Source: Desulfarculaceae bacterium
Lineage (GTDB): Bacteria > Desulfobacterota > Desulfarculia > Desulfarculales > Desulfarculaceae
Reading direction: 5' to 3'
DNA: 64,000 nt
Assembly: GCA_021737145.1 (NCBI GenBank)
Contig: JAIPEN010000008.1
Coordinates: forward strand, 123,585-187,584
Shown here: piece after piece, positions 9,772 to 48,316 of the stretch
Position numbering within the stretch: the stretch's first letter is position 1
How the letters are laid out: the number at the start of each line of letters is the position of its first letter
Position numbers and translations under genes: made by a program
The notes under the pieces: generated by a model
What the model was told of the DNA's origin: nothing
The model's input: the letters and a program-made list of their open reading frames with translations, nothing else
Database searches by the model: none

Positions 9772-9783
9772 ACGGGAGTGAAC

Positions 9784-10062
9784 ATGCCGCAGCACAGTCA
9801 TGACTTCGTGGAAGAGTACACCGGCCTGGTGGGATACGGCCTGGACCGGCCCACCGACGAGGCCACGGTGCGGGTCTATCTGCAAAAATTCTCCGACGAC
9901 GCCTGCATGGCCGCCATCCTGCCCCGCCTGGAGCAGGAGGAGCTGGGCATGATCTTCGAGACCATCAGCGACCTGTTGCGCAAGCATATGAGCGAAGAAG
10001 AGTATCACGACAAGTTCCTGAAAGACCCCGAGCCCCACCACCATCACCCCATCGAGGAGTGA
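9784..10062 (+). CDS. small cytoplasmic protein with C-terminal His run (PEPHHHHPIEE)
   Basis: ATG 9784 preceded by GGGAG. Coding-like composition. No family recognised. Confidence 0.5.
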   Translation: MPQHSHDFVEEYTGLVGYGLDRPTDEATVRVYLQKFSDDACMAAILPRLEQEELGMIFETISDLLRKHMSEEEYHDKFLKDPEPHHHHPIEE

Positions 10063-10075
10063 GCGAGGAGTGAGC

Positions 10076-11215: not shown

Positions 11216-11225
11216 GAGAGCGACC

Positions 11226-13486: not shown

Positions 13487-13492
13487 GAGAAG

Positions 13493-19284: not shown

Positions 19285-19407
19285 CGGCTGCGCCAGACGC
19301 GGCTATGCCGCGTTGCGGGCGTCGCTCGCCTCCTCGGCGTATGAGCAATACGCCTGCGGGTCTCGCTCGCCCGGCGCCTTGCCTAGCCACGCCTGGCTGT
19401 GCCGCCA
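19285..19407. repeat. long-hairpin intergenic repeat, copy A
   Basis: Shares ...GCGTTGCGGGC..CGCTCG..CCTCGGCGTAT-loop-ATACGCC.GCGG..CTCGCT.GCC..GCCTTG..CTGGCTGTGCCG with copies at 22512, 31741 and 33511. Confidence 0.7.
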
Positions 19408-19673
19408 TTGCCGTGGGCAGGGTCCTAACGGTATCAATCCATATAAGTAAGTTTGTCATTGCGAGGAGTGGCCTTGCCGCGACGAAGCAATCTCTGCTTG
19501 TAAGAAGGCGTTGGTTGCGGCGCGGCCTGGTTGGCTGCGTTTTGCTGCCCGGCGCCGGGAACAGCGGAAGATTGGCACGCAGCGGCGGGAGGGCGGCCTG
19601 GTTTTTACCTGCCTCCGGGGCCGCCTCTGCTCGCGATGACCGTCTGTTTCTGAAAAAGATTGAATAGGTGCTT

Positions 19674-22511: not shown

Positions 22512-22632
22512 GCGGCTTGGCTGGCCACCGGCATGCGGCCTGGCCGGCGCCGCTTCGATCTCGTTGTATCAAACCATACGTCTCCGATTGCCGCCGGCCA
22601 GGCGCCTTGTCCGACGGCGGCTGACCGTGCCG
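22512..22632. repeat. long-hairpin intergenic repeat, copy B
   Basis: CCACCGGCAT... start and ...GGCGGCTGACCGTGCCG end are shared with copy D. Central GTTGTAT-caaacc-ATACGTC hairpin. Confidence 0.6.
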
Positions 22633-30324: not shown

Positions 30325-31734
30325 ATGAATCACGGCCATCTAGATAAGAAAAGCATCATCCCGGCAGCGGGGACGCCGTCCCGCCGGGAAGCCCCCAGTA
30401 GTGATAAGGCATCAATTTTGTGGCAAGAAACCCTCGCCGCCCTGGGCGGTGAGCTGGATCCCCGCGAGGCCTCCCTCTGGCTGGAGCCCCTCAAGCCCCA
30501 GGCCCTGAGCAACGGCCGCCTGGTGGTGAGCGGGCCCAATCAGCTGCACTGCAACACGGTGCGCGAGCGTTTCGCCGTCCGTTTGGAACGGGCCCTGCAA
30601 GACAAACAGCCCGGCCTGCGCCTGAGCCTGGAGGCCGCCCCCTCGGCCAAGCCCACGGCCGGCCCGGCCCCGGGCCCCCGCCAGATGGAGCTGCCCCGTT
30701 TGGGCTGGGCCCAGCCCCGCCTGAACCAACGCTACGTGTTCGACAACTTCCTGTCCGGGGGAGGCAACGAGTTTGCCTGCGCCGCGGCCAAGGCCCTGGC
30801 CGGGGGCAGCGGGCTCTACTCCAACAGCCTGTTCCTCATGTCGTCCACCGGCCTGGGCAAGAGCCACCTCACCCAGGCGGTGGGGCACCAGGTGCTGGGC
30901 TTCCGGCCCGACTCCCGGGTGGCCTACCTGACCGCCGAGGACTTCACCAACCAGATGACCGCGGCCATCCGGGGCAAGAAGACCCAGCAGTTCAAGGAGC
31001 GCTTCCGCACCAGTTGCGACCTGTTCCTCTTGGAAGAGGTGCAGTTCTTGGCGGGCAAGGAGAAGACCCAGGAGGAGCTGGTCTACACCCTGGACGCCCT
31101 GGCCGACCAGGGCAAGCGGGTGGTCTTCACCGGCCGCATGCTTCCCTCCCAGGTCAAGGGGCTCTCCGCCGCCCTGGCCAGCCGCCTGGCCGACAGCGTG
31201 GCCGTGGGCATCGAGCCCCCGGACTTCGCCACCCGGGTGCGCATTTTGGAGCGCCAGGCCGCCCAGGAGGGCGTGCAGGTGCCCAAGCCGGTGCTGGAGT
31301 TCCTGGCCCAGGAGGTGCCCGGCGACATCCGGCGCATGCGCTCGGCCCTGGTGGGCATTTTGGCCCGGGGCAGCCTGGCGGGCCGCCCCCTGGACCTGAA
31401 GCTGGCCGCCGAGGTGATGGGCTCCATCAGCGCCAACCTGGCCCGCCACACCCCGGAGCATATCCGGGACCTGGTGGCCTCGGTCTACGGCATGACCCCC
31501 GCGGTGCTCACCGGCAAGAGCCGCAAGAAATCCGTGGTCACCCCGCGCAACATGGCCATGTGCCTGTCCCGACGCCACACCGACGCCTCTTACAAGAGCA
31601 TCGGCCAGGTGTTCAACCGGGATCACGCCACGGTGATGTACGGGGTGGATCAGATCGAGCGGCGCCTGGGCAGCGAGCCCAAACTGGCGGCCGAGCTCTC
31701 GTTCCTGGAACAGAGGTTGGGAGTCAGTTCGTAG
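30325..31734 (+). CDS. dnaA: chromosomal replication initiator protein DnaA
   Basis: Walker A SSTGLGKSHL, AAA+ box FLLEEVQF, C-terminal DNA-binding signature DHATVMYGVDQIE. Confidence 0.9.
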   Translation: MNHGHLDKKSIIPAAGTPSRREAPSSDKASILWQETLAALGGELDPREASLWLEPLKPQALSNGRLVVSGPNQLHCNTVRERFAVRLERALQDKQPGLRLSLEAAPSAKPTAGPAPGPRQMELPRLGWAQPRLNQRYVFDNFLSGGGNEFACAAAKALAGGSGLYSNSLFLMSSTGLGKSHLTQAVGHQVLGFRPDSRVAYLTAEDFTNQMTAAIRGKKTQQFKERFRTSCDLFLLEEVQFLAGKEKTQEELVYTLDALADQGKRVVFTGRMLPSQVKGLSAALASRLADSVAVGIEPPDFATRVRILERQAAQEGVQVPKPVLEFLAQEVPGDIRRMRSALVGILARGSLAGRPLDLKLAAEVMGSISANLARHTPEHIRDLVASVYGMTPAVLTGKSRKKSVVTPRNMAMCLSRRHTDASYKSIGQVFNRDHATVMYGVDQIERRLGSEPKLAAELSFLEQRLGVSS

Positions 31735-31902: not shown

Positions 31903-32721
31903 ATGGCCTGGTTGGAGCTGGACGGGCGGCGGGTTTACTACGAGGAGCACGGCGAGGGGCCCCTGGTCATCCTATTGCACCACGGCTTCTCCTCCTGCGA
32001 AATGTGGCGGGGCCTGCTGCCCCACCTGGTAATGGCCGGGCACCGGGTGGTGATGTACGACCGCCGGGGCTACGGCCGGAGCGAGGCGGGCGACGGCTTC
32101 CGGGAGTTCTACTTCAGCGACGGGTTCCGGCCGGCGGCGGTGGAGGAGCTGGCCGGGTTCATGGCCGCCCTGGAGCTGGGGCCGGCCCACCTGGTGGGCC
32201 AGTGCGAGGGCGGGGTGGTGGCCCTGGACGCGGCCGCGGCCCGGCCCGAGCTGGTAAAGAGCCTGTGCGCGGCCAGCACCCAGTGCCACAGCCCCTATGC
32301 CATGCCCCAGTTCAACCGGGAGAAGTTCCCCACCCCCTACGCCGAGGTGGACCCGTCGGTTAAAAACAAGATGATCAAGTGGCAGGGGGAGGAGAATGCC
32401 GAGGAGCGCTTCGAGCTGTTCCGCTACATGGGCGGGGCCTATGGCTGCGGCGACTTTGACCTGCGGCCGCTCCTGCCCTCGGTGACCGCCCCGGCCCTGG
32501 TGCTCTACCCCGACCGCAGCGCCCTGTTCCCGGTGGAGCAGGGGGTGGCCATGTACCGGGGCCTGCCCCTGGGCGAGCTGGCCGTGATCCCCTCCTGCGG
32601 GCACAACTCCTATGACAACCGGCCCACCGAGTATCTGCGCATCCTGCTGGGTTTTTTGCGCCGCCACGAGCAGGGCGAGGGCCTGCCGGACAATTACAGC
32701 TTTTCCACCTGCGCGGGCTGA
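31903..32721 (+). CDS. alpha/beta-fold hydrolase with Cys in the nucleophile elbow (GQCEGG)
   Basis: AAGGAG RBS. HHGFSS oxyanion region. C-terminal CGHNS His motif. Confidence 0.8.
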   Translation: MAWLELDGRRVYYEEHGEGPLVILLHHGFSSCEMWRGLLPHLVMAGHRVVMYDRRGYGRSEAGDGFREFYFSDGFRPAAVEELAGFMAALELGPAHLVGQCEGGVVALDAAAARPELVKSLCAASTQCHSPYAMPQFNREKFPTPYAEVDPSVKNKMIKWQGEENAEERFELFRYMGGAYGCGDFDLRPLLPSVTAPALVLYPDRSALFPVEQGVAMYRGLPLGELAVIPSCGHNSYDNRPTEYLRILLGFLRRHEQGEGLPDNYSFSTCAG

Positions 32722-33011
32722 CGCCTGATCAGGCGCAGCCGCCGGGTCCGCCGCCGCACCAGATAGCCCAGGGCGTCGCGCGCGGTGCGCAACAGGGCCG
32801 CGTCCTCGCGGTCCAGGGCGGCCAGACCGCCACCGCGCCGCCAGACCCGCCGCGCGGCCAGGCCAGCTCCCACCAACAACAAGACCAATAGGCCCAGGCC
32901 CAGGTAGAGGCCCAGGCTGGTTCCGTCCCGGCCGGGGGGAGGCGGGGGCGGCGGCCAAGTCGGAGGCGGCGCGGCCCTGAGCACCAGGCATCCGCCTGAA
33001 ACCGCCAGCAT
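32694..33011 (-). CDS. possible small membrane protein (DUF4381-like pattern: Pro-rich, TM, Arg-rich)
   Basis: ATG 33011. PPPTWPPPPPPPG, then the LYLGLGLLVLLLVGAGL helix, then RRVWRR. Overlaps the hydrolase 3' end by 28 nt. Weak support. Confidence 0.3.
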   Translation of the reverse strand: MLAVSGGCLVLRAAPPPTWPPPPPPPGRDGTSLGLYLGLGLLVLLLVGAGLAARRVWRRGGGLAALDREDAALLRTARDALGYLVRRRTRRLRLIRRQPAQVEKL

Positions 33012-33062
33012 GGCCAGCGGGGCCCAAAACCGTCCTAGCCTTTTAAGGTAAATAGAAATGGC

Positions 33063-33091
33063 TTGACATATAACCGTTAAGGGTATATCTA
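33063..33091 (+). promoter_or_regulatory. candidate sigma70 promoter for the phage-like module (TTGACA ... TATATCT)
   Basis: Consensus -35 at 33063-33068. The -10 is imperfect and the spacing is 15-17 nt. Sits in a locally AT-rich gap upstream of the Mor-like gene. Confidence 0.3.
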
Positions 33092-33164
33092 AGCTGCTGC
33101 AAACGACTCTCAGTAGATACCACAAAGCCGCGGGGCAATTGAACCGCAATTCAAGGAGGCGAAC

Positions 33165-33482
33165 ATGGCCCAGGATCATTTCTCCCGCCAAGGGCTGGTG
33201 CCCGGCTGGATGAGCCAGGTGGAACCAGAGCAGCTGCCAGAGGTGTATCAGGAAATCGTGGGGGTTATCGGCCTGCAGCCCACCCTGCAACTGGCCCAGG
33301 TCTTTGCGGGCAACAGCGTGTACTTCCCCAAGCTGGACCGGGCGCTCATCGAGCTGCGCAACCGGCTGATCCGGGCCGAGTTCGACGGGGCCAACACCCG
33401 CCAACTGGCCCGGCGCTGGGGCCTGAGCTCCCGTCACGTGCGCCACATCCTGCGCCCCGCCCGCCGGGCCGAGGACAACTGA
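33165..33482 (+). CDS. Mor-family (phage Mu middle operon regulator-like) transcriptional activator
   Basis: AAGGAGG RBS. C-terminal HTH pattern RNRLIRAEFDGANTRQLARRWGLSSRHVRHIL. Confidence 0.65.
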   Translation: MAQDHFSRQGLVPGWMSQVEPEQLPEVYQEIVGVIGLQPTLQLAQVFAGNSVYFPKLDRALIELRNRLIRAEFDGANTRQLARRWGLSSRHVRHILRPARRAEDN

Positions 33483-33510
33483 TGCCCGCGAATTTCAAGT
33501 TGGTCGCGCG

Positions 33511-33636
33511 TCCGGCCGCGCCAGCCACCGGCATACTGCGTTGCTGGCCGCGCTCGGGCCTCAAGGCAGGACTAAAGGCTGCGCCCGCGGCCCTCGCTTG
33601 CCAGACGCCTTGTCTGCCGGCGGCTGGCTGTGCCGG
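33511..33636. repeat. long-hairpin intergenic repeat, copy D
   Basis: CCACCGGCATACTGCGTTGC at the start is complementary to ...TGCCGGCGG at the end. Ends in CTGGCTGTGCCGG like copy A. Confidence 0.65.
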
Positions 33637-33937
33637 GATCGCCTGCCAGCCTATCCGTGGCAAAGGATTACGTATTTTTTTCTTGGCTCCATAAAGGCCA
33701 GAATGTTGCGCACTGCCGCCCAAGCATCATGAAATCCGTGGGCTGGCCCTTTCCCCTCCTTCCCAACCCTCTTAAACATCCCCCCACCCGGAGACAACCC
33801 GAGGAAGCGCCGCCGCGCGCCGCCTCGGGAAGGAGTTTTTGTGCGCCCCCTTGCTGGGCCCCCCCGCGCGGGGGGCCTAGGCTGCAACCCATGCTCAAGG
33901 CCCGCAGCACACAGCCGGGCCGCAAGAAGGAGGGCAC

Positions 33938-34108
33938 ATGGGCCTTTTAAAGACCAAGACCTTTTGGACCGGGGTGGCCGCCCTGGCCACGGCGGCGGGA
34001 ACCTACTTCGGCGGGGAGGCCGGCCTGTGGGAGGCGGCCCAGACCGCGCTCACCGGCCTGGTGGCCATCTTCCTGCGCAGCGGCCTGCTGCGCCTGCCCC
34101 AGGGCTAG
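33938..34108 (+). CDS. 56-aa two-helix membrane protein (holin-like size and topology); below the ORF-track length cutoff
   Basis: ATG 33938 with AAGGAGGG 5 nt upstream. MGLLKTKTFWTGVAALATAAGTYFGG...LTGLVAIFLRSGLLRLPQG. Confidence 0.5.
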   Translation: MGLLKTKTFWTGVAALATAAGTYFGGEAGLWEAAQTALTGLVAIFLRSGLLRLPQG

Positions 34109-34135
34109 GCCCGCTTGGGCGAGGAGGAGATAAGG

Positions 34136-34372
34136 GTGGCCCTGGAGAACCTGCGGGGCCAGCTGCGGCGGCTGGACACGGTGATCAAGATGTCCCTGGC
34201 CGAGCAGCGGCGGGTGAACGGCGAGGCCGCCGCCGGCATGGAGCGCATCGGGCTCCGGGTGGACGCCCTGGATCAGCGCTTGGACCGCCTGGAGACCCGT
34301 TTGGCCGCCTACACCGGGGGCCTGTTCGTCCTGTGGCTGCTGTTTCAAGTGGTCAATTCCCTGTTGAGGTGA
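34136..34372 (+). CDS. small coiled-coil protein with C-terminal TM anchor
   Basis: GTG 34136 after GAGGAGGAG (alternative TTG 34115). C-terminal GGLFVLWLLFQVV helix. Confidence 0.45.
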   Translation: MALENLRGQLRRLDTVIKMSLAEQRRVNGEAAAGMERIGLRVDALDQRLDRLETRLAAYTGGLFVLWLLFQVVNSLLR

Positions 34373-34377
34373 GAGCC

Positions 34378-34617
34378 ATGGACAAGACATCCCGCCTGAT
34401 CGCCCGGGGCCTCAAGGCCGAAAAGCGCGAGCGCCTGCGCCAGCTGGAGATAAAGATCGACCGCCTGGGCAAGGACATCAGCTATTACCTGTACAACCTG
34501 GACGGGGTGGAGGCCATGCGGGTGGACCACGCCGAGCAGGCCATGGAGGAGCTGGTGGCCGCGGTGCGCGAGTACCGGGCGCTGAGCCGCGAGCTCAAGG
34601 AGATGGAGGCCTGCTGA
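34378..34617 (+). CDS. small helical phage-module protein
   Basis: ATG 34378 after GAGGTGAG. Its stop overlaps the next start (TGATG). Confidence 0.45.
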   Translation: MDKTSRLIARGLKAEKRERLRQLEIKIDRLGKDISYYLYNLDGVEAMRVDHAEQAMEELVAAVREYRALSRELKEMEAC

Positions 34618-35063
34618 TGGCCGGCCAGGACCCCAAGGCCCGGGCCCGGGCCCGCTATTTGGCCGGAGGCGATCTTCGCTCCCTGGCCGATGAGCTGGGC
34701 CTGGAGCAGGATCAGCTCATCCGCTGGGCGGCCGAGGGCGGCTGGGCGGCCATGCGCCGGGCCTGGCTGGCCGACCCCCGGGGGGCCTCCGCCGCCCTGC
34801 GCGAGCTCATGGCCAAGAAGGTGGAGGACCTGGTGGCCTCGGGCGAGCTGGGGGCCAGGCAGGCCGACGAGCTGGCCAAGATCGCCAGCGCCTGCGCCCG
34901 TTTGGAGCGGGAGGGCTATGACCTCAAGGCCGCCGCGGTGGAGGTGGGCGAGCGTTTGGCCGCCCTGGCCGCCGAGGGGGCCGGAGACCCCGAGCGCCTG
35001 GCCTGGCTGGGGCGGCTGTTGGCCAAGCTATTCAACCGCCTGGACAGCGAGGGCGCGGCATGA
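34617..35063 (+). CDS. putative terminase small subunit
   Basis: Sits immediately 5' of terL. N-terminal HTH-like RYLAGGDLRSLADELGLEQDQLIRWA. Confidence 0.5.
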   Translation: MAGQDPKARARARYLAGGDLRSLADELGLEQDQLIRWAAEGGWAAMRRAWLADPRGASAALRELMAKKVEDLVASGELGARQADELAKIASACARLEREGYDLKAAAVEVGERLAALAAEGAGDPERLAWLGRLLAKLFNRLDSEGAA

Positions 35064-35118
35064 GCGCCCTGGCCGCCCGCAAGATGACCAGCGCCCGCTT
35101 TCGCCAGCGGCCGACCCC

Positions 35119-36444
35119 TTGTATTTCTGCCGGGCCTATCTGCCCCACTACTTCAGCCACGAGTTCGCGCCTTTCCACCGCGAGCTGATCAAGCTATTGG
35201 AGATGCGGGGCAGGGCGGTGGTGCCGGTGGCCGTGGCCGCGCCGCGCGGATTCGCCAAGACCACCCTGGTGAGCTTCGGCTACGTATTGCACCAGGTGTC
35301 GTTCGGACGGCGGCGTTTCGTGGTGATCGGCTCGGACACCGCCGACCTGGCCGGCGACCTGACCAGCTACCTGCGCCTGGAGCTGGAGCTCAACCCCCGC
35401 CTGGCCGAGGACTTCGGCCCGGTTTGCCGCGCCGAGGGCCCGGCCGGCGACTTTGTGGTGGGCGGGCGCATCCGCATCCTGGCCCGGGGATCGGGCCAGC
35501 GCCTGCGCGGGGTCAAGCACGGCCGCTTCCGGCCCGACCTGGTGGTCCTGGACGATCTGGAAAACGACAAGAACGTGAAGAACCCCCGCCTGGTGCGCGA
35601 TTGCCTGGAGTGGGTGAGCGCGGCGGTGTACCCGGCCATCGACCCGGCGGGCAGCCTGTTTGTCATCGGCACCATCCTGGCCAGGCGCAGCGCCCTGGCG
35701 GTGATGGTCAACTCGCCCGAGGAGCCCTGGAAGCGCTACACCCGGCGCATCTACCGGGCCCTGGACGATAAGGGACACAGCCTGTGGGAGGCGCGCCACC
35801 CGGCCGCCGAGCTGCTGGAGCAAAAGCGGCTCATGGGCTCGCGGGCCTTCAACACCGAGAAGCAGAACAACCCCCTGGATGAAAACGGCATGTTCCAGGA
35901 GGAGTGGCTGCGCTCCTATCACCCGGCCGAACTGGCGGGCAAGGAGCTGGCCGTGGTGGGCTTTTTGGACCCCTCCCTGGCCACGGGCGAGCGGGGCGAC
36001 TTCAAGGCCGTGGTCAGCGTGGGCCTGGACCGGGCGGCCGGGGTGTTCTACGTGCTGGACGCCTTTATCCGGCGCTGCTCCCTGGACCAGCTCATGCGCG
36101 CGGTGCTGAGGCGCCAGGCCCGCCACCACTACCTGGTCTTCGGGGTGGAGGACAACCTGTTTCAGCGCCTGCTGCTGGACGAGTTTTCCCGGGCCGCGGC
36201 CGAGGCCGGGGTGACCCTGCCGCTCAGGGGCGTGACCCAGCGGCTGTCCAAGGAGCTCCGCCTGGCCGGGCTCTCCCCCCTGGTGGAGCGGGGCCTGGTG
36301 CGTTTCCGGCCCGGGCATTCGGACCAGGACGAGCTGATCGAGCAACTGCTTCATTTTCCCACCCCCAAAGTGCATGACGACGGGCCCGACGCCCTGGAGG
36401 GCGCGGTGAGCCTGGTCCGAGCCACGGGGCCCAACGTCTGGTGA
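35119..36444 (+). CDS. phage terminase large subunit (N-terminal boundary unresolved)
   Basis: Walker A PRGFAKTT, Walker B VVLDDLEND, C-terminal nuclease-like HDDGPDALE. Only a TTG is available in frame (see finding). Confidence 0.8.
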   Translation: MYFCRAYLPHYFSHEFAPFHRELIKLLEMRGRAVVPVAVAAPRGFAKTTLVSFGYVLHQVSFGRRRFVVIGSDTADLAGDLTSYLRLELELNPRLAEDFGPVCRAEGPAGDFVVGGRIRILARGSGQRLRGVKHGRFRPDLVVLDDLENDKNVKNPRLVRDCLEWVSAAVYPAIDPAGSLFVIGTILARRSALAVMVNSPEEPWKRYTRRIYRALDDKGHSLWEARHPAAELLEQKRLMGSRAFNTEKQNNPLDENGMFQEEWLRSYHPAELAGKELAVVGFLDPSLATGERGDFKAVVSVGLDRAAGVFYVLDAFIRRCSLDQLMRAVLRRQARHHYLVFGVEDNLFQRLLLDEFSRAAAEAGVTLPLRGVTQRLSKELRLAGLSPLVERGLVRFRPGHSDQDELIEQLLHFPTPKVHDDGPDALEGAVSLVRATGPNVW

Positions 36445-36445
36445 G

Positions 36446-37909
36446 GTGATCATGAAATCCTGGCTGAGCAACCGATTCTCCATGTTCCGCGCCAAGCGCC
36501 TGGACCTGCCTCCCGCGCCCTCGGGACCGCCGCCCTTTTTGGGGGGCAGCGCCACCCGGGGCCGCTCCCGCCAGCTGGCCGCCTATCAGGGCTGGGTCTT
36601 CGCGGCGGTGGGGGCCATCGCCCGGCGCATGGCCGGCATGCCCCTAAGGCTCTTTGCCGAGCAGGACGATGGCAACGGCCTGGAGGTGAACCAGCATCCG
36701 GTGCTGGAGCTGCTCAAGCGGCCCAACCCGCTGCTCACCGGCCGCCAGCTCCGCTACACCCTGTGCCTTCACCTGGAGCTCACGGGCATGGCCTTTGTGT
36801 TGGTGTTGGACAACGCCCTGGGCCGCCCGGCCGAGCTGTGGCCCCTGAACCCGGCCGACCTGATCGAGATAAGCGCGGGCGGCGACACCCGTCAGCCCAT
36901 CGAGCGCTTCGTGTTCGCCGACTCCCACGGTGAGCGGGTGAGCTACGCGCCGGGGCGCATCCTCTACTTCCGCCACCCCAGCCCCACCAGCCTGGTCTAC
37001 GGGGCCAGCCCGGTGGAGGCCGTGGCCCACGCCTATGACATCGATCTGGCGGTGCGCATTTATCAACGCAACTTCTTTAGGAACTCGGCCCGGCCCGAGG
37101 TGGTGCTGAGCACCGACCAACGCCTGACCGAGGACGAGGCCCGGCGGGTGCTCACCCGCTGGCGCCAGAAGCACCAGGGCCTGGCCCACGTGTTCGAGCC
37201 CACCGTATTGGACGGCGGGCTCAAGGCCACCCCGCTCACCTACTCGGCCAAGGACTTCGAGTTCATGGACCTGGCCGGCTGGACCCAGGACAACATCCTG
37301 GCCGCCTACGGGGTGCCCGCCGGCAAGCTGGGCCTGGTCAAGGACGTGAACCGGGCCAACGCCCAGGGCATCGAGGTGACCTTCAACGCCGAGTGCATCC
37401 GGCCCCGCCTGGAGCTGTGGGAGGACGTGCTCAACGCCTTCCTGCTGCCCCGCTACGGCGCGGGCCTGGCTCTCAGGCACGACAACCCGGTGCCCAGCGA
37501 CCGGGCCCAGGCCCACAGGGAGGCCATGGCCCAGCTGGACCGGGGGGTGATCACCATCAACGAGCTGCGCGCCGCCCAGGGCCGCGCCCCGGTGGCCTGG
37601 GGGCACGAGCCCCTGGGGCGGGCCGAGGCCGAGAGCCCGCTGGCCATGGGCCTGGCGCCGGAGCTGGCCGCGTCGCTCAAGCAAGGCTGGCCCCGCCTGG
37701 AGGCCCGCTTCGCCGGGTGGTCGTCCGGGCGGGTGGCCAAGGAGCTGGACAAGAACCCCGCCCTGCTGGAGGGGCTGCTGCCCGGCCATCTGCCCGCCGC
37801 CCAAAAGGGGCGGCTGCGGGCGCGGCTGAAAAGCTGCCTCACCAGGGGCCTGAACCTGGAGCAAACCAAGTGGGAGCTGGGCTCCCCCCGCCAAGGAGAC
37901 GAGTCATGA
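36446..37909 (+). CDS. phage portal protein, HK97 family
   Basis: 487 aa between terL and the protease. Pattern typical of HK97-type portals (start GTG 36446 or ATG 36452). Confidence 0.8.
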   Translation: MIMKSWLSNRFSMFRAKRLDLPPAPSGPPPFLGGSATRGRSRQLAAYQGWVFAAVGAIARRMAGMPLRLFAEQDDGNGLEVNQHPVLELLKRPNPLLTGRQLRYTLCLHLELTGMAFVLVLDNALGRPAELWPLNPADLIEISAGGDTRQPIERFVFADSHGERVSYAPGRILYFRHPSPTSLVYGASPVEAVAHAYDIDLAVRIYQRNFFRNSARPEVVLSTDQRLTEDEARRVLTRWRQKHQGLAHVFEPTVLDGGLKATPLTYSAKDFEFMDLAGWTQDNILAAYGVPAGKLGLVKDVNRANAQGIEVTFNAECIRPRLELWEDVLNAFLLPRYGAGLALRHDNPVPSDRAQAHREAMAQLDRGVITINELRAAQGRAPVAWGHEPLGRAEAESPLAMGLAPELAASLKQGWPRLEARFAGWSSGRVAKELDKNPALLEGLLPGHLPAAQKGRLRARLKSCLTRGLNLEQTKWELGSPRQGDES

Positions 37910-38532
37910 AGCTGGTGCACAAGGTGATGGATTTCGAGGTGAACCGGGCGGACGAGGACAACCGCACCTTTTGGGCGGTGGCCTCCAGCCCCACCGTGGA
38001 CCGCCAGGGCGACCTGGTGGAGCCCGACGGCTGGGACTTCGCCAACTTCCTGAGGAACCCGGTGATCCCCTGGGCCCATGACTACGCCTCCCCGCCGGTG
38101 GCCCGGGCTCTGGCGGTCAAGGTGGAGAACGGGCGGCTGTTGTTCAAGGCCCAGTTTCCCACCGCCGAGGAGTACGCCTTTGCCGACACCATCTACCGCC
38201 TGTACAAGGGCGGCTATCTGCGGGCCTTCTCGGTGGGCTTCGCCCCCTTGGAAAGCGAGGTGGCCACCCACCGGGTGAGCGGCCGCGCCCTGACCGGAAC
38301 CCGCTACCTGCGGCAGGAGCTCTACGAGATCTCCTGCGTGACCCTGCCGGCCAACCCCGAGGCCCTGGTGGCCCTGGGCCTTCCGGCCGCCAGCACCCCC
38401 TCCCCGGAACAGACTCCGGGCGCGCCGCCCGTGGCGGCGATGAACCCCGGAGCGGCCCGGGCCGTGGTGTCGGCCGCCCTGGGCCAGGCGGTGGTGGAGC
38501 GCCTGCGCTTCCACCTGGGCCTGGTGGACTGA
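37906..38532 (+). CDS. HK97-family prohead (maturation) protease
   Basis: ATGA overlap with the portal gene. DRQGDLV, IPWAHD and FSVGF motifs typical of the S78/U35 family. Confidence 0.8.
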   Translation: MKLVHKVMDFEVNRADEDNRTFWAVASSPTVDRQGDLVEPDGWDFANFLRNPVIPWAHDYASPPVARALAVKVENGRLLFKAQFPTAEEYAFADTIYRLYKGGYLRAFSVGFAPLESEVATHRVSGRALTGTRYLRQELYEISCVTLPANPEALVALGLPAASTPSPEQTPGAPPVAAMNPGAARAVVSAALGQAVVERLRFHLGLVD

Positions 38533-38562
38533 CAAACCAAGATCACAAGGAGCGATCAAGCC

Positions 38563-39789
38563 ATGAAGCAGACCAAGATCATCGAGCTGTTGGAGCAGGC
38601 CACCGGCCTGTCCTTGGACGAGAACAGCCTCAAGGGGCTCATCGACCAGCGTCTGGAAAAGGTGCTGGCCGCGGTGGAGCCGGGCCGGGTGAGCCTGGGC
38701 GGGCCCTCCGCCCTGCCGGGGGTGGGCCTGAGCAAGTACCTGGGCGACGTGCGCCGTTTGGGCATGGGCCAGGCGCCGAAGCACCTGGAGGCCGGCGAGC
38801 TGATCAGCGCCGGGGGCGCCGCCCTCAAGCAAGTGGAGGCGCCCCAGGCCAAGGACCTGCGCGAGGGGGCCACCACCGCGGGCGGCTATCTGGTGCCCGG
38901 CGAGGAGTCCGGCGAGGTGCTCAACCTGGTGAACAACTTCAGCGCCCTCAAGGGCCTGTGCCGCACCGTGCCCATGAACAGCCACCAGATCACCTTCCCC
39001 ACCATCAGCGGCGGGCTCACCGCCTACTGGGTGCCCGAGGCCGTGGACACCGAGACCTACGGCCTGGGCGACGGCGCGGCCCACGGCGAAAAGCCCCGCT
39101 CCGACGCCACCTTCGGCCAGCTGGCCCTGAACGCCCACGTGCTGGCGGTCAAGGTGGTGGTGAGCAACCAGCTGTTGGACGACTCGGACCCCGGGGTGGA
39201 CGCGGTGCTCAGAAACCTGTTCGCCGAGACCATCGGCTCGGCCTTTGACGTGGCCTGCCTGCGGGGCACCGGCGCGGCCACCGACCCGGTCACCGGCCTG
39301 GTGGGCAAGATAAGCACCAACGCCCTGAGCGTGAGCGGCACCTTCGGCTTCGACGACCTGGCCAGGCTGATCTTCGCGGTGTACGAGAACGCGCCCCATG
39401 CGGCCCAGGTGCCGGTGATCGGCCATCCCAAGGCCGAGAAGGTGCTCATGACCCTGAAGGACGACTACGGCGACTACATCTACCGCCAGCCGGGCCAGCC
39501 CCGGGCCGAGGGGCAGCAGCGGCCCCTGGTGTGGGGCGAGCCCTTTGTGCGCGACCCCAACATCCTCGCCAACCTGGGCGACGGCACCGACGAGACCCGC
39601 CTGTTCGCGGGCGACTTCGCCGGCAGCGCCCTGGTGGGCCTGCGGCAGGGGCTGGTGGTCAAGACCAACCCCTGGGCCGAGCCCTACTTCTCCTACAACC
39701 AGACCGCCTTTTTGGCCGAGGTGCGCATGGGCTTCAACCTGAGCGACGAGAAGCGCTTCGCCAGCCTGAGCGCGGTGCCCACCGCCTAA
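38563..39789 (+). CDS. HK97-family major capsid protein
   Basis: 408 aa. N-terminal coiled delta-domain-like region, then TTAGGYLVP... typical of HK97-fold capsids. Position after the protease. Confidence 0.8.
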   Translation: MKQTKIIELLEQATGLSLDENSLKGLIDQRLEKVLAAVEPGRVSLGGPSALPGVGLSKYLGDVRRLGMGQAPKHLEAGELISAGGAALKQVEAPQAKDLREGATTAGGYLVPGEESGEVLNLVNNFSALKGLCRTVPMNSHQITFPTISGGLTAYWVPEAVDTETYGLGDGAAHGEKPRSDATFGQLALNAHVLAVKVVVSNQLLDDSDPGVDAVLRNLFAETIGSAFDVACLRGTGAATDPVTGLVGKISTNALSVSGTFGFDDLARLIFAVYENAPHAAQVPVIGHPKAEKVLMTLKDDYGDYIYRQPGQPRAEGQQRPLVWGEPFVRDPNILANLGDGTDETRLFAGDFAGSALVGLRQGLVVKTNPWAEPYFSYNQTAFLAEVRMGFNLSDEKRFASLSAVPTA

Positions 39790-39950
39790 AAAACCACCAA
39801 ACCGCCCCGGGGGCCGAGCCGGCCTCCGGGGCCACGGGAGAGAGAACATGCCAGCCATCGCCGCCCGCCACATCGCCCGGCCGCCCCGGCACACCGCCCT
39901 GAGCGCTTCGCCGGTGCTCAAAGGCGGCCGCCGCCAGGGGAGCTGAAGCC

Positions 39951-40559
39951 ATGGCTCTATCGCAAGACGCCCTGACCACCGTGGCCGGGGTAAAGCAATA
40001 CCTGGCCATCGCCTCCACGGAGCACGACGGCCTGCTGGAACGGCTCATCGAGGCGGTGAGCGCCCAGTTCAACGCCTACACCGGCCGCAAGCTAACCGCC
40101 CGCGACTACAGCTATCTCAGCGGCGACGATGCCTATGACCCGGACAACGCGCTCTTGTCGGGCGCCGGCTATGCCGAACTGCTCTTGCCCCAGTACCCGG
40201 TGCTCGGCCTGAGCAGCCTGGTGCTGGACGGCCGGGAGATATCCCCGGCCAGCGGCGGGGTGGGCTGGGTGCTGGACGCCGGGGCCGGGGTGGTGACCCG
40301 GCTGGACGGGGTGTTCCCCCGGGGGGCCCACAACGTGGGCCTGGTCTACAGGGCCGGCTTCGAGACCGCGCCCCCGGACCTGGTCCAGGCGGCCATCGAG
40401 CAGGCGGCGGTGCGCTTTCAGGAGTCCGGGGCGGGCCACGGCCGTTTGGGAGTGAGCGCGCGCACCCTGGCCGACGGCTCGGTGAGCTATCACGCCGGGG
40501 CCTTGTTGCCCTCGGTCAAGGCGGTGCTGGACCGCTACCGCAACCGGAGCCTGCTGTGA
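39951..40559 (+). CDS. gp6-like head-tail connector (longer than usual, possibly connector + head-closure)
   Basis: N-terminus VAGVKQYLAIASTEHDGLLERLIEAVSAQFNAYTGRKL matches the connector pattern. Confidence 0.6.
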   Translation: MALSQDALTTVAGVKQYLAIASTEHDGLLERLIEAVSAQFNAYTGRKLTARDYSYLSGDDAYDPDNALLSGAGYAELLLPQYPVLGLSSLVLDGREISPASGGVGWVLDAGAGVVTRLDGVFPRGAHNVGLVYRAGFETAPPDLVQAAIEQAAVRFQESGAGHGRLGVSARTLADGSVSYHAGALLPSVKAVLDRYRNRSLL

Positions 40560-40999
40560 TCCGGGTCAGCCTGATCCCCCCGGCGGTGGACCCCTGGGAG
40601 CGGATCCTGCGGGCCTTCCCGGCGGTGATCCGCAAATCCTTAGAGCAAGCGCTCGAACTTGGCCTGGCCGCGTCCCGCGAGGCCATGGGGCCGGGCGGCA
40701 CCGGCCCGGCCGTCCGTTCCGGCCGCCTGCTGCGCAGCCTGGGCGCGCGGGTCTACCAATCCGGCGACACCTACATCGGCGAGCTAAAGGCCGACGCCCC
40801 CTATGCCGGGGTGCAGGAATACGGGGCGGTCATCCAGGCCAAGAAGGCGAAATACCTGAAGTTCCGGGTGCAGGGCCAATGGGTGCAGGTCAAGCGGGTG
40901 GTGATCCCGGCCCGGCCCTACCTGCGGCCCGGGCGCGACGCGGCCCTCACAGCCCTGCCCGAGCTGCTTGAGCGCAACCTGGCGGAGGCGATGCAATGA
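40556..40999 (+). CDS. HK97 gp10-family head-tail joining protein
   Basis: GTGA overlap. APYAGVQEYG ... ARPYLRPG motifs. Confidence 0.6.
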   Translation: MIRVSLIPPAVDPWERILRAFPAVIRKSLEQALELGLAASREAMGPGGTGPAVRSGRLLRSLGARVYQSGDTYIGELKADAPYAGVQEYGAVIQAKKAKYLKFRVQGQWVQVKRVVIPARPYLRPGRDAALTALPELLERNLAEAMQ

Positions 41000-41424
41000 C
41001 CCGCGCAACGATCATCGACGACCTGCTGGCCTGCTTGCGGGCCATGGGCCCGATCCATGGCATGCCCCTGGCCGCGGCCACGGTGCTCCGGGGCATTCAT
41101 CTGGCCGAGCAGGTGAACGATTTGCCCGCCCTGGCCCTGTTCAACGAGCGGGTGGAGAGCCTGGAGTCCACCGACCGCACCGTGGAGCGCAAGCTGGTCT
41201 TGCACCTGTGGGGGTATGCCAAGGCAGCGGGCAGTGATTTCAGTGGCTTGGACCGCCTGGCCGAGAGCGCGCTCATGGCCCTGGGCGATCCGGGCCTCAA
41301 CCCCCACTGGGAGCGCACCGCCTGCGGCAATTTGGAGATCTACGAGGGCGGCGCGGGCGACCCCCTGGGCATCTTCGACCTGGAGCTGACCGTGGAGTAC
41401 GAGTCGCCCCTGAATACGCTTTGA
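40996..41424 (+). CDS. putative tail terminator (gp11/DUF3168-like position)
   Basis: ATGA overlap. Called on size and position only. Confidence 0.4.
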   Translation: MTRATIIDDLLACLRAMGPIHGMPLAAATVLRGIHLAEQVNDLPALALFNERVESLESTDRTVERKLVLHLWGYAKAAGSDFSGLDRLAESALMALGDPGLNPHWERTACGNLEIYEGGAGDPLGIFDLELTVEYESPLNTL

Positions 41425-41452
41425 GCAATTACTTTAATATAGGGAGAGAGAC

Positions 41453-42487
41453 ATGAGCAGCGGTAAGGAAATTCGGGCGGCCTTTGCCCAGGCCGAGACC
41501 TGGGGCACGCCGGTGGCCTGCGCCCCGGGCGACGCCATGCTGATCACCAGCGAGTCCATAACCCAGTCCATCGAGCACCTGCCCGACGACAGCGCGGGCC
41601 AGAGCTTTCACGCGGCCAGCGACCAGGGGCTGGTCACCTGCGGCGGCGACCTGGGGGCGTACTTGCGCTACCAGGGCCTGGGGGTCCTGCTGGCCATGGC
41701 CATGGGCCAGGCCGGAGAGCCCACCCCCCAGGGCAGCGCGGGCCAGCTCCACCAGCTGCGCCTGGGCGGAGACACCGACGGCCTGTTCGGCACCCTGGCC
41801 CTGTACAAGGGCTTTTCGGTGCACGAGTTCGCCTCGGCCAAGGTGGACGGCTTCACCATCAGCGGGGCGGCCGGCCAGCCGGTGAGCGTCACCTTTCATC
41901 TGATCTGCGACGGCATGAGCATCAACACCGCCAGCGGGGCCAACACCAACGCCTCGCTCACCGGGCTGAGCGCGCCCGCTCCGGGCAACCGGGTGCTGTT
42001 CAAGCAGGCCGGCTTTTGGATCAACGACGCCTCGGACGGGGCCTTGGACGCCGGCGACGCGGTGCATCCGGGCCGCTTCAGTCTGAGCTTTAGGCGCAAG
42101 CTGGCCGGCGACCACCTGGCCGGGGGCGCGGACAAGATCGCCGAGCCGGTGTGCGCCGCCTTCCCGGAGCTTAGCCTGAGCCTGGAGTTCCCCACCTACA
42201 CCAGCGACACCTACCTGAGCGACCTGGGCTCCGGGGTCAGCAAGAAAATGCGCATCGACTTCAGCGGCCCGGAGATCGAGTCCGGGGTGGACCATGGACT
42301 CAGCCTGATCATGCCCCACCTGGTGATCACCAACGCCGAGAGCGCGGTGGATCGGGCCGGCAAGATCGCCCATCCGGTGAGCCTGAACCTGCTGGCCCCG
42401 CCGGCCGAGGCGGCGGGCATGAGCGGCATCAACGAGCCCCTGGCCCTGGACCTGACCAACACCCGGACCAGCGCCCTGCTGGTCTAA
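41453..42487 (+). CDS. putative major tail/tube protein
   Basis: AGGGAGAG RBS. 344 aa and beta-rich. Called mainly on position, as the last gene of the module. Confidence 0.4.
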   Translation: MSSGKEIRAAFAQAETWGTPVACAPGDAMLITSESITQSIEHLPDDSAGQSFHAASDQGLVTCGGDLGAYLRYQGLGVLLAMAMGQAGEPTPQGSAGQLHQLRLGGDTDGLFGTLALYKGFSVHEFASAKVDGFTISGAAGQPVSVTFHLICDGMSINTASGANTNASLTGLSAPAPGNRVLFKQAGFWINDASDGALDAGDAVHPGRFSLSFRRKLAGDHLAGGADKIAEPVCAAFPELSLSLEFPTYTSDTYLSDLGSGVSKKMRIDFSGPEIESGVDHGLSLIMPHLVITNAESAVDRAGKIAHPVSLNLLAPPAEAAGMSGINEPLALDLTNTRTSALLV

Positions 42488-42607
42488 AGCAAGGGGCGCG
42501 GCAAGAAAGGGCTTTTGTTTTCCGTGCCCTAGGGGTTATTTTAACCGGGTCGGGCCCACCAGGGTCCGGCCCGTCTTCACTCACCCCCCAAGCCGGAAGT
42601 TTGGCCC

Positions 42608-43174
42608 ATGGATGACAGCGAAAGCATCAAAATCAGCATGCCCGCCGCGGTTAAGCCCCACGTCCCCCAGGAGGAACGGCCCCTGGAGCAGTGCATGGCC
42701 GAGGCCAAGATGCTCATGGTGGAGTTGGAGGGCGGGCTCAGCGACGGGCTGACCACCCTGGGCCCGGACGGGGCCGAGAGCCTGAGCCTGTACCGGGCCG
42801 ACATCCTGGGCCTGGAGGCCTGGGTGGAAGCGGGCCGCAAGCTGGTGCTCCTGGCCAGGCCGGACTTGGCCCTGGCCGAGCCGCTGGCCCAGCGGTTGGG
42901 GGCGAGCTTGCGCACCACCGGCGGGGACAAGGACATATTGTTCAAGCAGGTGATCTGGGAAAACGAGATCATCGCCGCGCAGGCGGCCTACATGGGCCGG
43001 GACATGGACGACCTGCCCGCCCTGGGCCTGGCCGGGCTGGCGGTGTGCCCGCCCGAGTCGCCGGAGTGGGTCAAGGGAGTCTGCCACATCGTCACCGGGG
43101 CCCCGGCCGGACGGGGCGCGGTGCGCGAGCTCGTCGACCGCCTGCTGGCAGACTACGTGCCCGAGGACATCTAA
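42608..43174 (+). CDS. HAD-IIIA phosphatase, KdsC-like C-terminal half with divergent N-terminus
   Basis: GRDMDDLPALGLAGLAVCP...GRGAVRELVDRLL resembles the KdsC motifs GDDxNDLP and GGxGAVRE. Confidence 0.5.
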   Translation: MDDSESIKISMPAAVKPHVPQEERPLEQCMAEAKMLMVELEGGLSDGLTTLGPDGAESLSLYRADILGLEAWVEAGRKLVLLARPDLALAEPLAQRLGASLRTTGGDKDILFKQVIWENEIIAAQAAYMGRDMDDLPALGLAGLAVCPPESPEWVKGVCHIVTGAPAGRGAVRELVDRLLADYVPEDI

Positions 43175-47380: not shown

Positions 47381-48316
47381 GTGGTTAGCAACAAGCCGCC
47401 ACATGCAGGCGATGATAAAAAATATGAAATTTTAGATAAGGGTAAGGGTCAAGAAAATATAAAGAAAATATTCGACGACATTGATGTAATGGAGAATTTT
47501 GTAACCGATAGCGGTAGGGTAATGCCGGTATCTTTAATCGGTAAATTTGCTCGAATTAAGTGTTTTCGAAGAGACCTGCTGTTGGATGTTGCATCCGAAA
47601 TTTGTGAAGATAATTATTCTGAAATATTATCCGTCCATAGAGATCTTTCCTTGCTAGTGGCACCCGCCACCCCAGCAACAATCACGGCAAGCAAGCGTTT
47701 AAAGTTTGGTTTGTTTATAAATACTGCCGCAATTAATTTAATAATTATTTCAACAATCGTTTCAATGATCGGCGTAGTCGTATCGTGCGCCTATATGTCA
47801 ACTGCTAATAGCATCTGGGCCAAACATGCTCTTCTGCCGTTTGCCGCTGGCCTGGGTGCTGGCTTCTATGCCCTTTACTCTGCGCACACATATATTCAAC
47901 AGAGAACTTATGACCCTCAATACGATCAAACATATTACGTCAGATATATTCTTGGTATTATTGCCGGAGTTATACTGGGGTACACAGGTGCAGACATAAT
48001 AAAAAATATCGATGTAGCGCAAGGTGGAAAAGTAACTAAGTCCGTGGGGTCAATGCTTTTTGCTGTTGTTGGAGGATATTCGGCGGATGTAGTTTACTTG
48101 CTACTGCAGCGTTTTACGGAAACGCTTAAGGCGACGATTCAAGGCAATAATTCGAGTAAGACAGATAAACAAATGCAAGATGTTAAAAATAAGGCCGCGA
48201 ATGAAGTCAGCCGCACAAAAAATGATATTGCAAGTCAACTGCAAGCTGCTATTAATAGAAATGGCGGTATTAAAAAGGAGGATATTGAGAAAACTTTGAA
48301 CGATTTGCTTTCCTAG
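47381..48316 (+). CDS. AT-rich orphan: 311-aa protein with soluble N-domain, four TM helices and Lys/Asn/Gln-rich helical tail
   Basis: Only long ORF in the island. GTG after GGGGGTGG. Its codon composition is clearly different from its neighbours. Confidence 0.7.
   Translation: MVSNKPPHAGDDKKYEILDKGKGQENIKKIFDDIDVMENFVTDSGRVMPVSLIGKFARIKCFRRDLLLDVASEICEDNYSEILSVHRDLSLLVAPATPATITASKRLKFGLFINTAAINLIIISTIVSMIGVVVSCAYMSTANSIWAKHALLPFAAGLGAGFYALYSAHTYIQQRTYDPQYDQTYYVRYILGIIAGVILGYTGADIIKNIDVAQGGKVTKSVGSMLFAVVGGYSADVVYLLLQRFTETLKATIQGNNSSKTDKQMQDVKNKAANEVSRTKNDIASQLQAAINRNGGIKKEDIEKTLNDLLS

Follow-up and report, generated by a model that had tools for sequence, protein, structure and literature searches.

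The window analysed here is a 64,000-nucleotide stretch of a Desulfarculaceae genome (contig JAIPEN010000008.1 of assembly GCA_021737145.1). It holds a 9.8-kb block of phage-type genes (32694–42487), in which a single plus-strand run leads from the late activator Mor to a tail tube protein (33165–42487). An earlier note on this DNA had read the block as either an element resembling a gene transfer agent (GTA) or a decayed prophage. Loci of the same type, each labelled L with a number, were found by scanning species-representative genomes, IMG/VR and JGI metagenomes; there are ∼39 of them in at least 20 Desulfarculaceae species, and the block that they share is referred to as the module. Genes were taken from an open reading frame (ORF) listing together with gene calls based on the GC content of third codon positions (GC3), and families were assigned by Pfam, PHROG and NCBIfam profile searches. 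The gene names proposed in the earlier note (Mor-like, terS-like, terL with its GFAKTT motif, portal, protease, capsid, gp6-like, gp10-like, terminator-like and tube-like) were all found at the same coordinates, with profile matches for all but the terS-like gene.

The run begins with a Mor-family late transcriptional activator (33165–33482; PF08765, 4.8e-16; phrog_836, 2e-20), which is 59–73% identical in all loci that extend to it, with a ratio of nonsynonymous to synonymous substitution rates (dN/dS) of 0.05–0.53. Packaging and head genes occupy the centre of the run. A TerS-like gene of 148 codons (34617–35063) is recognised by its position directly 5′ of the large terminase gene and by weak similarity to a phage protein. 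The large terminase itself, TerL, comprises an ATPase and a nuclease (35119–36444; phrog_38, 1.3e-88; PF17289; TIGR01630; GFAKTT motif) and is 73–85% identical across species. It is followed by an HK97-family portal that has no MuF domain (36446–37909; PF04860, 3e-67; TIGR01537, 128 bits with a cutoff of 112), a prohead serine protease of the S78 type (37906–38532; PF04586, 1.6e-6; phrog_80, 4e-20) and an HK97-fold major capsid protein (38563–39789; PF05065, 1.8e-36; TIGR01554, 140 bits). The capsid protein carries an N-terminal extension of ∼100 residues and is 66–90% identical inside the module clade.

Four connector and tail genes complete the run. They encode a head-tail adaptor with a gp6-like N-terminus and an HCP domain (39951–40559; phrog_442, 1.5e-28; PF05135, 6e-6; PF24163, precomputed), a tail-completion or Neck1 protein similar to HK97 gp10 (40556–40999; phrog_5, 1.8e-11; PF04883 at 0.0066, below cutoff), a probable tail terminator (40996–41424; phrog_4204, 9e-4) and the major tail or tube protein (41453–42487; PF18906, 6.4e-18; phrog_290, 1.6e-16). 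The terminator was modelled with AlphaFold2 from its single sequence at low confidence (pLDDT 55), and the best PDB matches of the model are lambda gpU, Chi, T5 p142 and other terminators (probability ∼1.0, TM score 0.45–0.5, E ∼2e-3). Because of these matches, with the model used as weak support only, and because the gene lies between those for Neck1 and the tube, its product is probably the tail terminator. PDB profile searches with the tube, terminator, Neck1 and TerS-like alignments gave no meaningful match. Contrary to the earlier note, which saw no tail-completion gene, the module thus encodes both tail completion and a tail terminator, and the missing part of the phage tail is everything distal to the tube. 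The four start/stop overlaps described there (34615–34619, 37906–37909, 40556–40559 and 40996–40999) follow from the ORF coordinates.

Four small genes belong to the block as well. Three, noted earlier as small ORFs 5′ of the TerS-like gene, are identified by their conservation across loci. The first, o56 (33938–34108, 56 aa), has a conserved motif KTKTFWTG and two hydrophobic or amphipathic segments, is kept in at least 12 loci and is holin-like by size and topology alone. The second, o85 (34115–34372), combines a coiled coil with a conserved C-terminal transmembrane helix (YTGGLFxLWLLFQV) and is kept in at least 17 loci, and the third, o79 (34378–34617), a coiled-coil protein of 79 residues, is the best-conserved small gene of the module at 77–88% identity. 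The fourth, F12 (32694–33011, minus strand, 105 aa), is called in the NCBI record and diverges from the run. It has a lipobox-like LxGC, a Pro-rich stretch, one transmembrane helix (hydrophobic segment at residues 29–57) and a C-terminal motif LDREDxALLRTARDAL in which D-E--AL-RT--D is invariant. F12 is present 5′ of Mor in most loci and adjoins it in 14 loci with differing flanks, and it is part of the module. Pfam and PHROG scans of all four proteins gave no significant match. With topology as the sole basis, the membrane proteins o56, o85 and F12 could be the relic of a lysis cassette.

Two stretches of non-coding DNA in the block are conserved. Cross-species alignment delineates a sigma-70-type promoter 5′ of mor (33063–33091, plus strand), with TTGACA, a 17-nt spacer and TATCTA, the −10 element reading TATTAT or TATAAT in other species. 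A dyad, ATATAACC-N5-GGGTATAT (33068–33088), overlaps the spacer and the −10 element; its consensus is ATATAnCC-N5-GGnTATAT, the TTGA is invariant and the dyad is kept in 17 of 17 aligned species. A consensus promoter scan reported no promoter, having missed this one since the last base of its −10 is not T. The arrangement looks like that of a repressible sigma-70 promoter with the dyad as a putative operator. The second stretch (33836–33883, plus strand), 5′ of o56, stands out by its invariant columns in a 13-species alignment. It contains a dyad TGCGCCC-N7-GGGCCCC (33842–33862; 13-species consensus TGCGCCC-N7-GGGCCGC), which RNAalifold picks out, and ∼16 nt 3′ of it an invariant TAnnnT (TAGGCT in the window, 33878–33883), with no −35 element. 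Such a layout, lacking a −35, is that expected of the Mor/C activator-dependent promoters of phage Mu, and by this analogy the block is a candidate Mor-dependent late promoter for the operon from o56 to the tube. An Rfam search of the window gave no match, and no Rfam family matches this block.

Conservation, inheritance and selection

Carriers of the module come almost entirely from the Desulfarculaceae, and the same 13 genes stand in the same order, from Mor to the tube, in every locus long enough to judge. Two carriers are in culture, Desulfocarbo indianensis SCBM (L022) and Desulfoferula mesophila, for which a complete 4.48-Mb genome is available (AP028679.1). Capsid homologues are graded, with ∼35 clusters at 62–89% identity, then a gap, and the next group at 38–55%. 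In a neighbour-joining tree of portal and capsid, the module-type loci form one clade on a long stem away from the phage-type relatives. Each of the 13 genes gives a single stop-free tblastn match covering at least 90% of its length in 12–33 loci, the other matches being mostly cut by contig ends or divergent at their termini. The portal match of L030 is the only one with a stop, and of the fully covered genes just two show a possible disruption. Full-text literature searches turned up no report of a GTA, or of any conserved phage-like element, from the Desulfarculaceae.

The tube is the last phage gene in each module-type locus, and host genes follow wherever the sequence goes on. At least six contexts are seen 3′ of the tube: a KdsC-like gene with DUF3786 and QueH, acyl-CoA dehydrogenase with a carboxyltransferase, a response regulator with a cyclase, NUDIX, DnaA, and a substrate-binding protein. 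On the 5′ side the neighbours are DnaA, phosphoglycerate kinase (PGK) or thioredoxin, all of them host genes. In the closest clade, which includes D. mesophila, the module occupies the same locus, Ald-DnaA upstream and KdsC-like-DUF3786-QueH downstream. Since PGK lies upstream in six loci and a DnaA paralogue is nearby in several arrangements, the neighbours shared across contexts fit local rearrangement better than transposition.

The linked DnaA-family gene is found at 30418–31734 in the window, L011:18698–19978, L060:1356–2657 and L072:1659–3047; it stands upstream of the module in the window's clade, comes right behind the tube gene in L060 and is 5 kb downstream in L011. The D. mesophila copy is located at ∼4.106 Mb of the 4.479-Mb genome. 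Judged by position, it is taken to be a paralogue and not the origin gene.

Divergence of the module follows that of its hosts. Pairwise identities among module proteins, from multiple alignments, correlate with r of 0.70–0.91, and capsid identity correlates with that of flanking host genes (DnaA, r 0.99; 2-hydroxyacid dehydrogenase, 0.99; QueH, 0.95; DUF3786, 0.92; PGK, 0.89). For the same genome pairs, capsid identity is 0.85–0.87, compared with 0.71–0.74 for QueH, DUF3786 and the dehydrogenase. Synonymous divergence (dS) among carrier species ranges from 0.2 to more than 1. Substitution rates were calculated by the Nei-Gojobori method, with medians from the tabulated gene values, and are informative only in comparison with the flanks, because a GC3 of ∼0.92 compresses dS and inflates dN/dS in all genes. 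Between L004 and L005, dS is 0.11–0.46 in the module and 0.24–0.43 in the flanks, with median dN/dS of ∼0.13 and ∼0.24 respectively; between the window and L004 the median dN/dS is ∼0.39 in the module and ∼0.42 in the flanks. In each pair, module dS equals flank dS and module dN/dS is equal or lower.

These comparisons bear on two of the alternative explanations. An inert deletion remnant of a prophage, whose decay is still to come, accords with the way the block arose, clearly by loss of both arms of a phage genome, and with the L028 capsid gene being split and the L030 portal match holding a stop. It does not accord with the unchanged order of 13 intact genes across at least 20 species at dS of 0.2 to more than 1, nor with dN/dS no higher than that of flanking housekeeping genes, conserved promoters and ameliorated codon usage. 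A mobile phage satellite, similar to the phage-inducible chromosomal islands that form capsids (cfPICIs), or an active phage with its remaining genes elsewhere, would account for capsid, terminase and connector genes without a full tail and for the several genomic contexts. Those contexts share neighbours, however, and the module co-diverges with its flanks; the surrounding 10–30 kb contain no integrase, AlpA-type regulator, primase-replicase, att repeats or tRNA target, and tail genes, forbidden in the cfPICI model, are present. Intactness, single origin, co-divergence and selection together exclude the inert remnant and argue against the mobile satellite, and we allow each of them only a very slight probability.

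The module is, with high probability as judged from these comparisons, selectively maintained and vertically inherited. Conservation at the same locus and constrained dN/dS, which the earlier note had proposed as signs of domestication, are both seen: there are ∼39 loci, with a shared locus in the closest clade, dN/dS at or below that of the flanks, and co-divergence. Relatives with a contiguous tape measure, which that note would have taken as a mark of plain prophage decay, occur only among distant phage-type relatives with capsids at most 55% identical, and none is found in the module clade. Its alternative of a plain deletion remnant therefore survives as an account of origin, and the comparative data reject it as an account of the present state. 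Domestication is well supported.

Base composition is consistent with long residence. The window is ∼68% GC, and GC is 0.64–0.71 both within and outside the module, much as the earlier note had remarked. The GC3 of module genes (0.92) is close to that of host genes (0.91), and relative synonymous codon usage correlates between module and host with r = 0.993, against 0.998 for a control in which two halves of the host gene set were compared. Codon usage of the module is fully ameliorated and matches that of the host. The AT-rich patches that had been contrasted with it are real, with GC of 0.47 at 47–48 kb, 0.40 at 54–55 kb and 0.57 at 63–64 kb.

The first two patches coincide with ORFs at 47381–48316 (plus strand, 311 aa) and 54076–55203 (minus strand, 375 aa), where local GC is 0.47 and 0.40 compared with 0.68 overall. 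Neither ORF has a Pfam or PHROG family, save for a weak SH3_3 match at the C-terminus of 54076–55203. Both probably represent foreign DNA inserted recently, without connection to the module.

The surroundings of the block are those of an ordinary chromosome. Pfam and NCBIfam scans covered about 50 of the ∼57 other genes called in the window, and every neighbour with a family match is an ordinary gene of the host. Among them are Era, thiolase, Fur, a TRAP transporter, peptidases, PyrF, RadC, alanine dehydrogenase and the DnaA paralogue, and further an alpha/beta hydrolase, a degenerate KdsC-like protein, DUF3786, QueH, 2-hydroxyacid dehydrogenase, HIT, electron transfer flavoprotein, MltG and SelB. 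Of the downstream genes named in the earlier note, DUF3786 and QueH are confirmed, and the supposed HAD phosphatase is only the degenerate KdsC-like protein of the HAD superfamily (42608–43174). This protein matches NCBIfam KdsC at 3e-17, far below cutoff, has no Pfam match, and has ELEGG at the position of the catalytic DxD motif of KdsC enzymes; it is probably a derivative without catalytic activity, and its gene is kept beside DUF3786 and QueH in the closest clade. A cluster at 8864–13969 that was considered as baseplate-like was rejected, since it encodes peptidases, a thioesterase and proteins with nucleoside-recognition (Gate) domains. The window contains no tRNA, and no direct or att-like repeats flank the module beyond chance-like GC-rich matches.

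Two further features lie in the intergenic DNA. A copy of a ∼155-bp interspersed repeat, resembling repetitive extragenic palindromes or miniature inverted-repeat transposable elements, was found by blastn at 33485–33640 (plus strand). Another copy is at 19285–19412 of the window, with partial copies at 1885–1916 and 22597–22632, and others lie in the intergenic DNA of L004, L005 (17441–17592 and 4036–4275), L007, L009 (10682–10831) and L056 (20754–21000). The copy beside mor is found in the window only, and because of its insertion the gap between mor and o56 is 456 bp in the window compared with ∼200 bp in other species; the repeat is not part of the ancestral module. An ORF at 33482–33694, which lies within the repeat and is not conserved, was rejected as a gene. 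Beyond the tube gene, a GC-rich hairpin with 12-bp arms, including two G-U pairs, is followed by TCTTCA (42546–42573, plus strand; read from the sequence). It is tentatively a possible operon terminator; a terminator scan did not report it, its T-run being weak.

Phage relatives and ancestry

The more distant, phage-type relatives are genuine prophages, among them L026, L033/L051 and L064–L066, whose tube proteins are 37–44% identical to that of the window. L051/L033 (IMGVR_UViG_3300022177_000057) represents an uncultured prophage lineage, together with L026. Next to the tube gene, the phage-type relatives have a gene for a tail assembly chaperone and then, where the contig continues, a 78-aa gene, a tape measure of 1483 aa (PF20155) and six tail-tip genes. 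Eight homologous genes stand in the same order in L051/L033, L026 and the module, with identities of 54–58% for TerL, ∼43–47% for the portal, ∼44–57% for the protease, ∼50–52% for the capsid, ∼51–56% for the adaptor, ∼32–37% for Neck1, ∼32% for the terminator and ∼44–47% for the tube. The similarity probably extends to the small genes: L033:4462–4821 has the same architecture (coiled coil and transmembrane helix) and position as o85 (pairwise E 0.002), and a 78-aa protein of L033 encoded directly 5′ of the TerS-like gene is the counterpart of o79, with weak similarity (E 0.018). The L051 portal differs in that it has 722 residues and a fused MuF domain (PF04233), and only its portal part aligns to the module portal. 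Between capsid and adaptor the phage relatives have one or two further genes, which the module lacks apart from the one kept in L062. No Mor gene was detected adjoining the late genes of the L051/L033 and L026 lineage.

Among cultured phages, TerL finds its best match in Casadabanvirus (MP42, JBD30 and H70, of Pseudomonas), at ∼35% identity. The map of MP42 runs from the repressor, transposase A/B and early genes through the late activator, small ORFs, endolysin and spanin to the DNA-binding (TerS-like) protein, TerL, portal, MuF, protease, capsid, adaptors and major tail, and ends with chaperones, tape measure and tail tip. From the late activator to the major tail (gp20–gp41), this map and the block are collinear, and a Mor-family activator is common to both. 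What sets the module apart from the Mu-like phages of the D3112/B3 type is the lack of a repressor, transposase A/B, early genes, endolysin, MuF, chaperones, tape measure and tail tip; nor does it act like mobile DNA. In a set of 50,697 deposited phage genomes the capsid finds at most 28% identity and the tube no match. Gene order and content thus identify the block as the putative late genes of an ancient Mu-like transposable siphovirus that has lost both genome arms. A transposing ancestor would explain the missing integrase, att sites and tRNA target.

Traces of exchange or rearrangement are seen at single loci. L062 retains, at 3836–4444 between capsid and adaptor, an extra 205-aa gene that is 68% identical to its L051 counterpart, compared with ∼50% for module capsids against the L051 capsid; this suggests slow evolution or later exchange with phages. 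Two paralogous chaperone-like ORFs lie immediately 5′ of Mor in L010 (3589–3927 and 3952–4272, plus strand), one of them 39% identical to the L026 chaperone, and F12 is not called there. They are the only relic of a post-tube tail gene beside any module, and they stand on the "wrong" side. In L025 (9995–15410) a capsid homologue of 54% identity is followed directly by a tape-measure-like protein of 1370 aa, with no recognisable adaptor, neck or tube between.

The TerS-like protein of the module consists of a helix-turn-helix (HTH)-like segment of ∼40 residues at the N-terminus and a helical core of ∼95 residues, the core being present in all loci. Its N-terminus resembles a TerS-like or DNA-binding protein of L051 (pairwise E 2e-4), which itself matches phrog_756 and phrog_2414. 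A single-sequence AlphaFold2 model of the window protein is all-helical (pLDDT 66), and a fold search with it was uninformative. The HTH-like segment is present in the window, in clade A, in the D. mesophila type and in L011, L029 and L030. In 10–11 lineages, about half (L010, L012, L014–L018, L020–L022 and L059; examples are L012:6010–6348, L014:5443–5760 and L022:5951–6349), a short basic Pro-rich tail takes its place, and the tree suggests that this happened more than once. Where the segment is absent, the core and TerL are still conserved. Being missing from about half of the lineages, the putative DNA-recognition part of TerS appears dispensable. Phage Mu has its pac site at the left genome end. 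Since the pac-bearing left end is missing from the module and the DNA-recognition part of TerS appears dispensable, non-specific headful packaging of host DNA would be a reasonable expectation. Loss of the DNA-recognition domain of TerS has been proposed to make GTA packaging non-specific (PMC6854486; PMC11841831).

Module and phage-type relatives can share a host. Two metagenome-assembled genomes (MAGs) hold the module together with a separate relative (L014 with L026, and L012 with L025), and one metagenome contains both the module L059 and the full prophage L051. Co-residence of this kind favours a host-resident, helper-dependent module that makes its own DNA-filled heads, neck and tube and receives the tape measure, tail-tip complex and lysis functions from a related siphovirus. 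The Mor-type activator might then cross-talk with the late genes of the helper, and the module would be a non-mobile analogue of the cfPICIs. It also favours this explanation that no unlinked chaperone or tape-measure series was found in the Desulfarculaceae by the searches described below, and that cfPICIs, which are capsid-plus-connector islands, are able to borrow tails (PMC10085698). The module, however, has its own tube, terminator and tail-completion protein, which are absent from cfPICIs, and it has no integrase or replication genes. Its tube and neck are only 35–44% identical to those of co-resident phages, making compatibility doubtful, and a sporadic helper fits poorly with purifying selection throughout the family. 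We regard dependence on a helper as unlikely, if still a credible competitor.

The circulation of related phages in the same hosts also allows an exaptation for a role other than DNA transfer, for example in anti-phage interference, in which mismatched portal, capsid, neck and tube proteins would poison the assembly or packaging of a related Mu-like phage. The conserved activator-dependent promoter block 5′ of the operon suits such a role, in that the Mor-type activator of an infecting phage could fire it, and the missing tape measure and tail tip pose no problem. A decoy, however, needs no complete and functioning line for packaging and maturation, whereas constraint close to that on host genes acts on the full set of 13, TerL ATPase-nuclease, protease and TerS included. 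The element also retains its own Mor, with its own conserved promoter and operator. Interference, in our assessment, is distinctly improbable.

Proposed working and relation to known systems

In the working that we propose, a repressor encoded by the host, or otherwise unlinked, would occupy the conserved dyad of the mor promoter. Its release would allow Mor to be made, and Mor would switch on the activator-type promoter 5′ of o56. The operon would then yield the TerS/TerL terminase, portal, protease and HK97 capsid for headful DNA packaging, and the adaptor, Neck1, terminator and tube would form the head-proximal part of a siphovirus tail. The packaged DNA would probably be host DNA, as in a GTA, with the tape measure, tail tip and lytic enzyme coming from an unlinked host locus or a co-resident related phage. 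The data themselves show the identities of the genes, the limits of the block, its conservation, its co-divergence with the host, the selection on it and its conserved regulatory DNA; particle formation, the nature of the packaged DNA and the supplier of the missing parts are what we infer from these.

On balance we lean, by a modest degree, towards the view that the module makes DNA-filled, GTA-like particles whose missing parts are supplied in trans. A more specific version of this view is put forward tentatively, as a possibility short of probable. It holds that the module is an unrecognised, independently evolved GTA-type system derived from a Mu-like phage, in which a Mor-controlled operon gives DNA-filled heads, neck and tube, and the tape measure and tail tip are provided in trans, from an unlinked host locus or scavenged from co-resident phages. 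As far as gene content and evolution can tell, the module is a strong candidate for a new GTA-like system and not a dead prophage.

Several observations weigh against the formation of such particles by a host-owned system. The earlier note reported no tape measure, baseplate, lysin, integrase or replication gene nearby, and this holds among the ∼50 scanned genes of the window and in a tblastn search of the window with tail proteins of related phages, which found no homologue. In these scans of the window no tape measure, tail-tip, baseplate or endolysin gene turned up, and no tape measure, distal tail or release genes lie within 10 kb of the module in other species. For a tube to grow to a set length, a tape measure and an initiator complex are normally required. 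Searches for unlinked copies, which needed shared five-residue words and were not whole-genome, returned no Desulfarculaceae series: a profile of phage chaperones recovered only two phage copies, and the 1483-aa query recovered only unrelated phage tape measures. Distribution appears uneven, as the capsid search returned no protein named for Desulfarculus baarsii, and the element may be absent from some family members. The TerS-like protein of the window itself keeps its HTH-like N-terminus. Absolute dN/dS is not very low (0.2–0.7 in distant pairs). There are, finally, signs of possible decay, the capsid gene of L028 (1132–2498) being frameshifted and split over two frames, and the portal match of L030 (7867–9321) containing an in-frame stop; in MAGs, either may be an assembly error.

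To our knowledge only a handful of GTAs are known. Each is of independent origin, and they are hard to distinguish from dead prophages. The module offers a clean comparative case, a family-wide, co-diverging and selectively kept head-to-tube operon with conserved regulatory DNA, and it is unusual in its Mu-like ancestry and in its truncation directly after the tube gene. If particles are made, they would constitute a new route of horizontal gene transfer in anaerobic sulfate reducers of sediment and groundwater. They would show how loss of the pac-bearing end of a transposable phage turns its terminase into a non-specific packager, and would make one ask how a tail can form with no tape measure linked to it. 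The system would then be the first GTA-like system of split architecture in the class Desulfarculia and a host-owned counterpart of the capsid-forming satellites. Its two cultured carriers, Desulfoferula mesophila and Desulfocarbo indianensis SCBM, make it directly testable.

Comparison with the known GTAs (RcGTA of Rhodobacter capsulatus, BaGTA, VSH-1, Dd1 and VTA) shows several likenesses. The module, like them, is a chromosomal, phage-derived cluster of packaging and structural genes without replication, integration or lysogeny genes, is vertically inherited under purifying selection, and has an HK97-type head with a siphovirus-type neck and tube. Its TerS may resemble the GTA type, in that the presumed DNA-recognition part appears dispensable in many module lineages, the window copy differing by its HTH-like N-terminus. 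The module is distinguished by its independent origin in another phylum, its Mu-like ancestor and its Mor-family activator. In addition, the RcGTA cluster extends on through tape-measure and distal-tail genes, whereas the module cluster stops at the tube, and no tape-measure, tail-tip or lysis locus was found in the window or by the searches described above. By comparative genomics the module would be classed with the GTAs, as one known here from its genes alone. Known GTAs themselves look like remnants of phages, and their genes are typically spread over several loci (PMC11841831).

Like the module, the cfPICIs have genes of their own for TerS, TerL, protease, HK97 capsid and a head-tail adaptor or connector, and lack a complete tail. 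They carry an integrase, an AlpA-type regulator and a primase-replicase at their left end, and tail genes are forbidden in the SatelliteFinder model that describes them (PMC10085698). The module differs in carrying a tube, terminator and tail-completion gene and in its vertical co-divergence in place of mobility. No integrase, AlpA-type regulator or primase-replicase is found among annotated genes to 33 kb 5′ and 21 kb 3′ in the window, nor within 10 kb in the other loci. Because these genes are missing and tail genes are present, the module is not a cfPICI.

Other phage-derived elements are also poor descriptions of the module. An intact siphovirus prophage would have contiguous chaperone, tape measure and tail-tip genes, and none is seen in module-type loci, nor are there integration, transposition, repressor, replication or endolysin genes. 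A Mu-like phage would have a DDE transposase A, an ATPase B, a repressor or Ner and defined ends; among the annotated genes of the window, no such gene flanks the module. The pseudogenes, relaxed selection and sporadic spread of a decaying remnant are not what the comparisons show. We conclude that the module is a domesticated phage particle module, GTA-like in kind, with an unusual ancestry and a truncated architecture.

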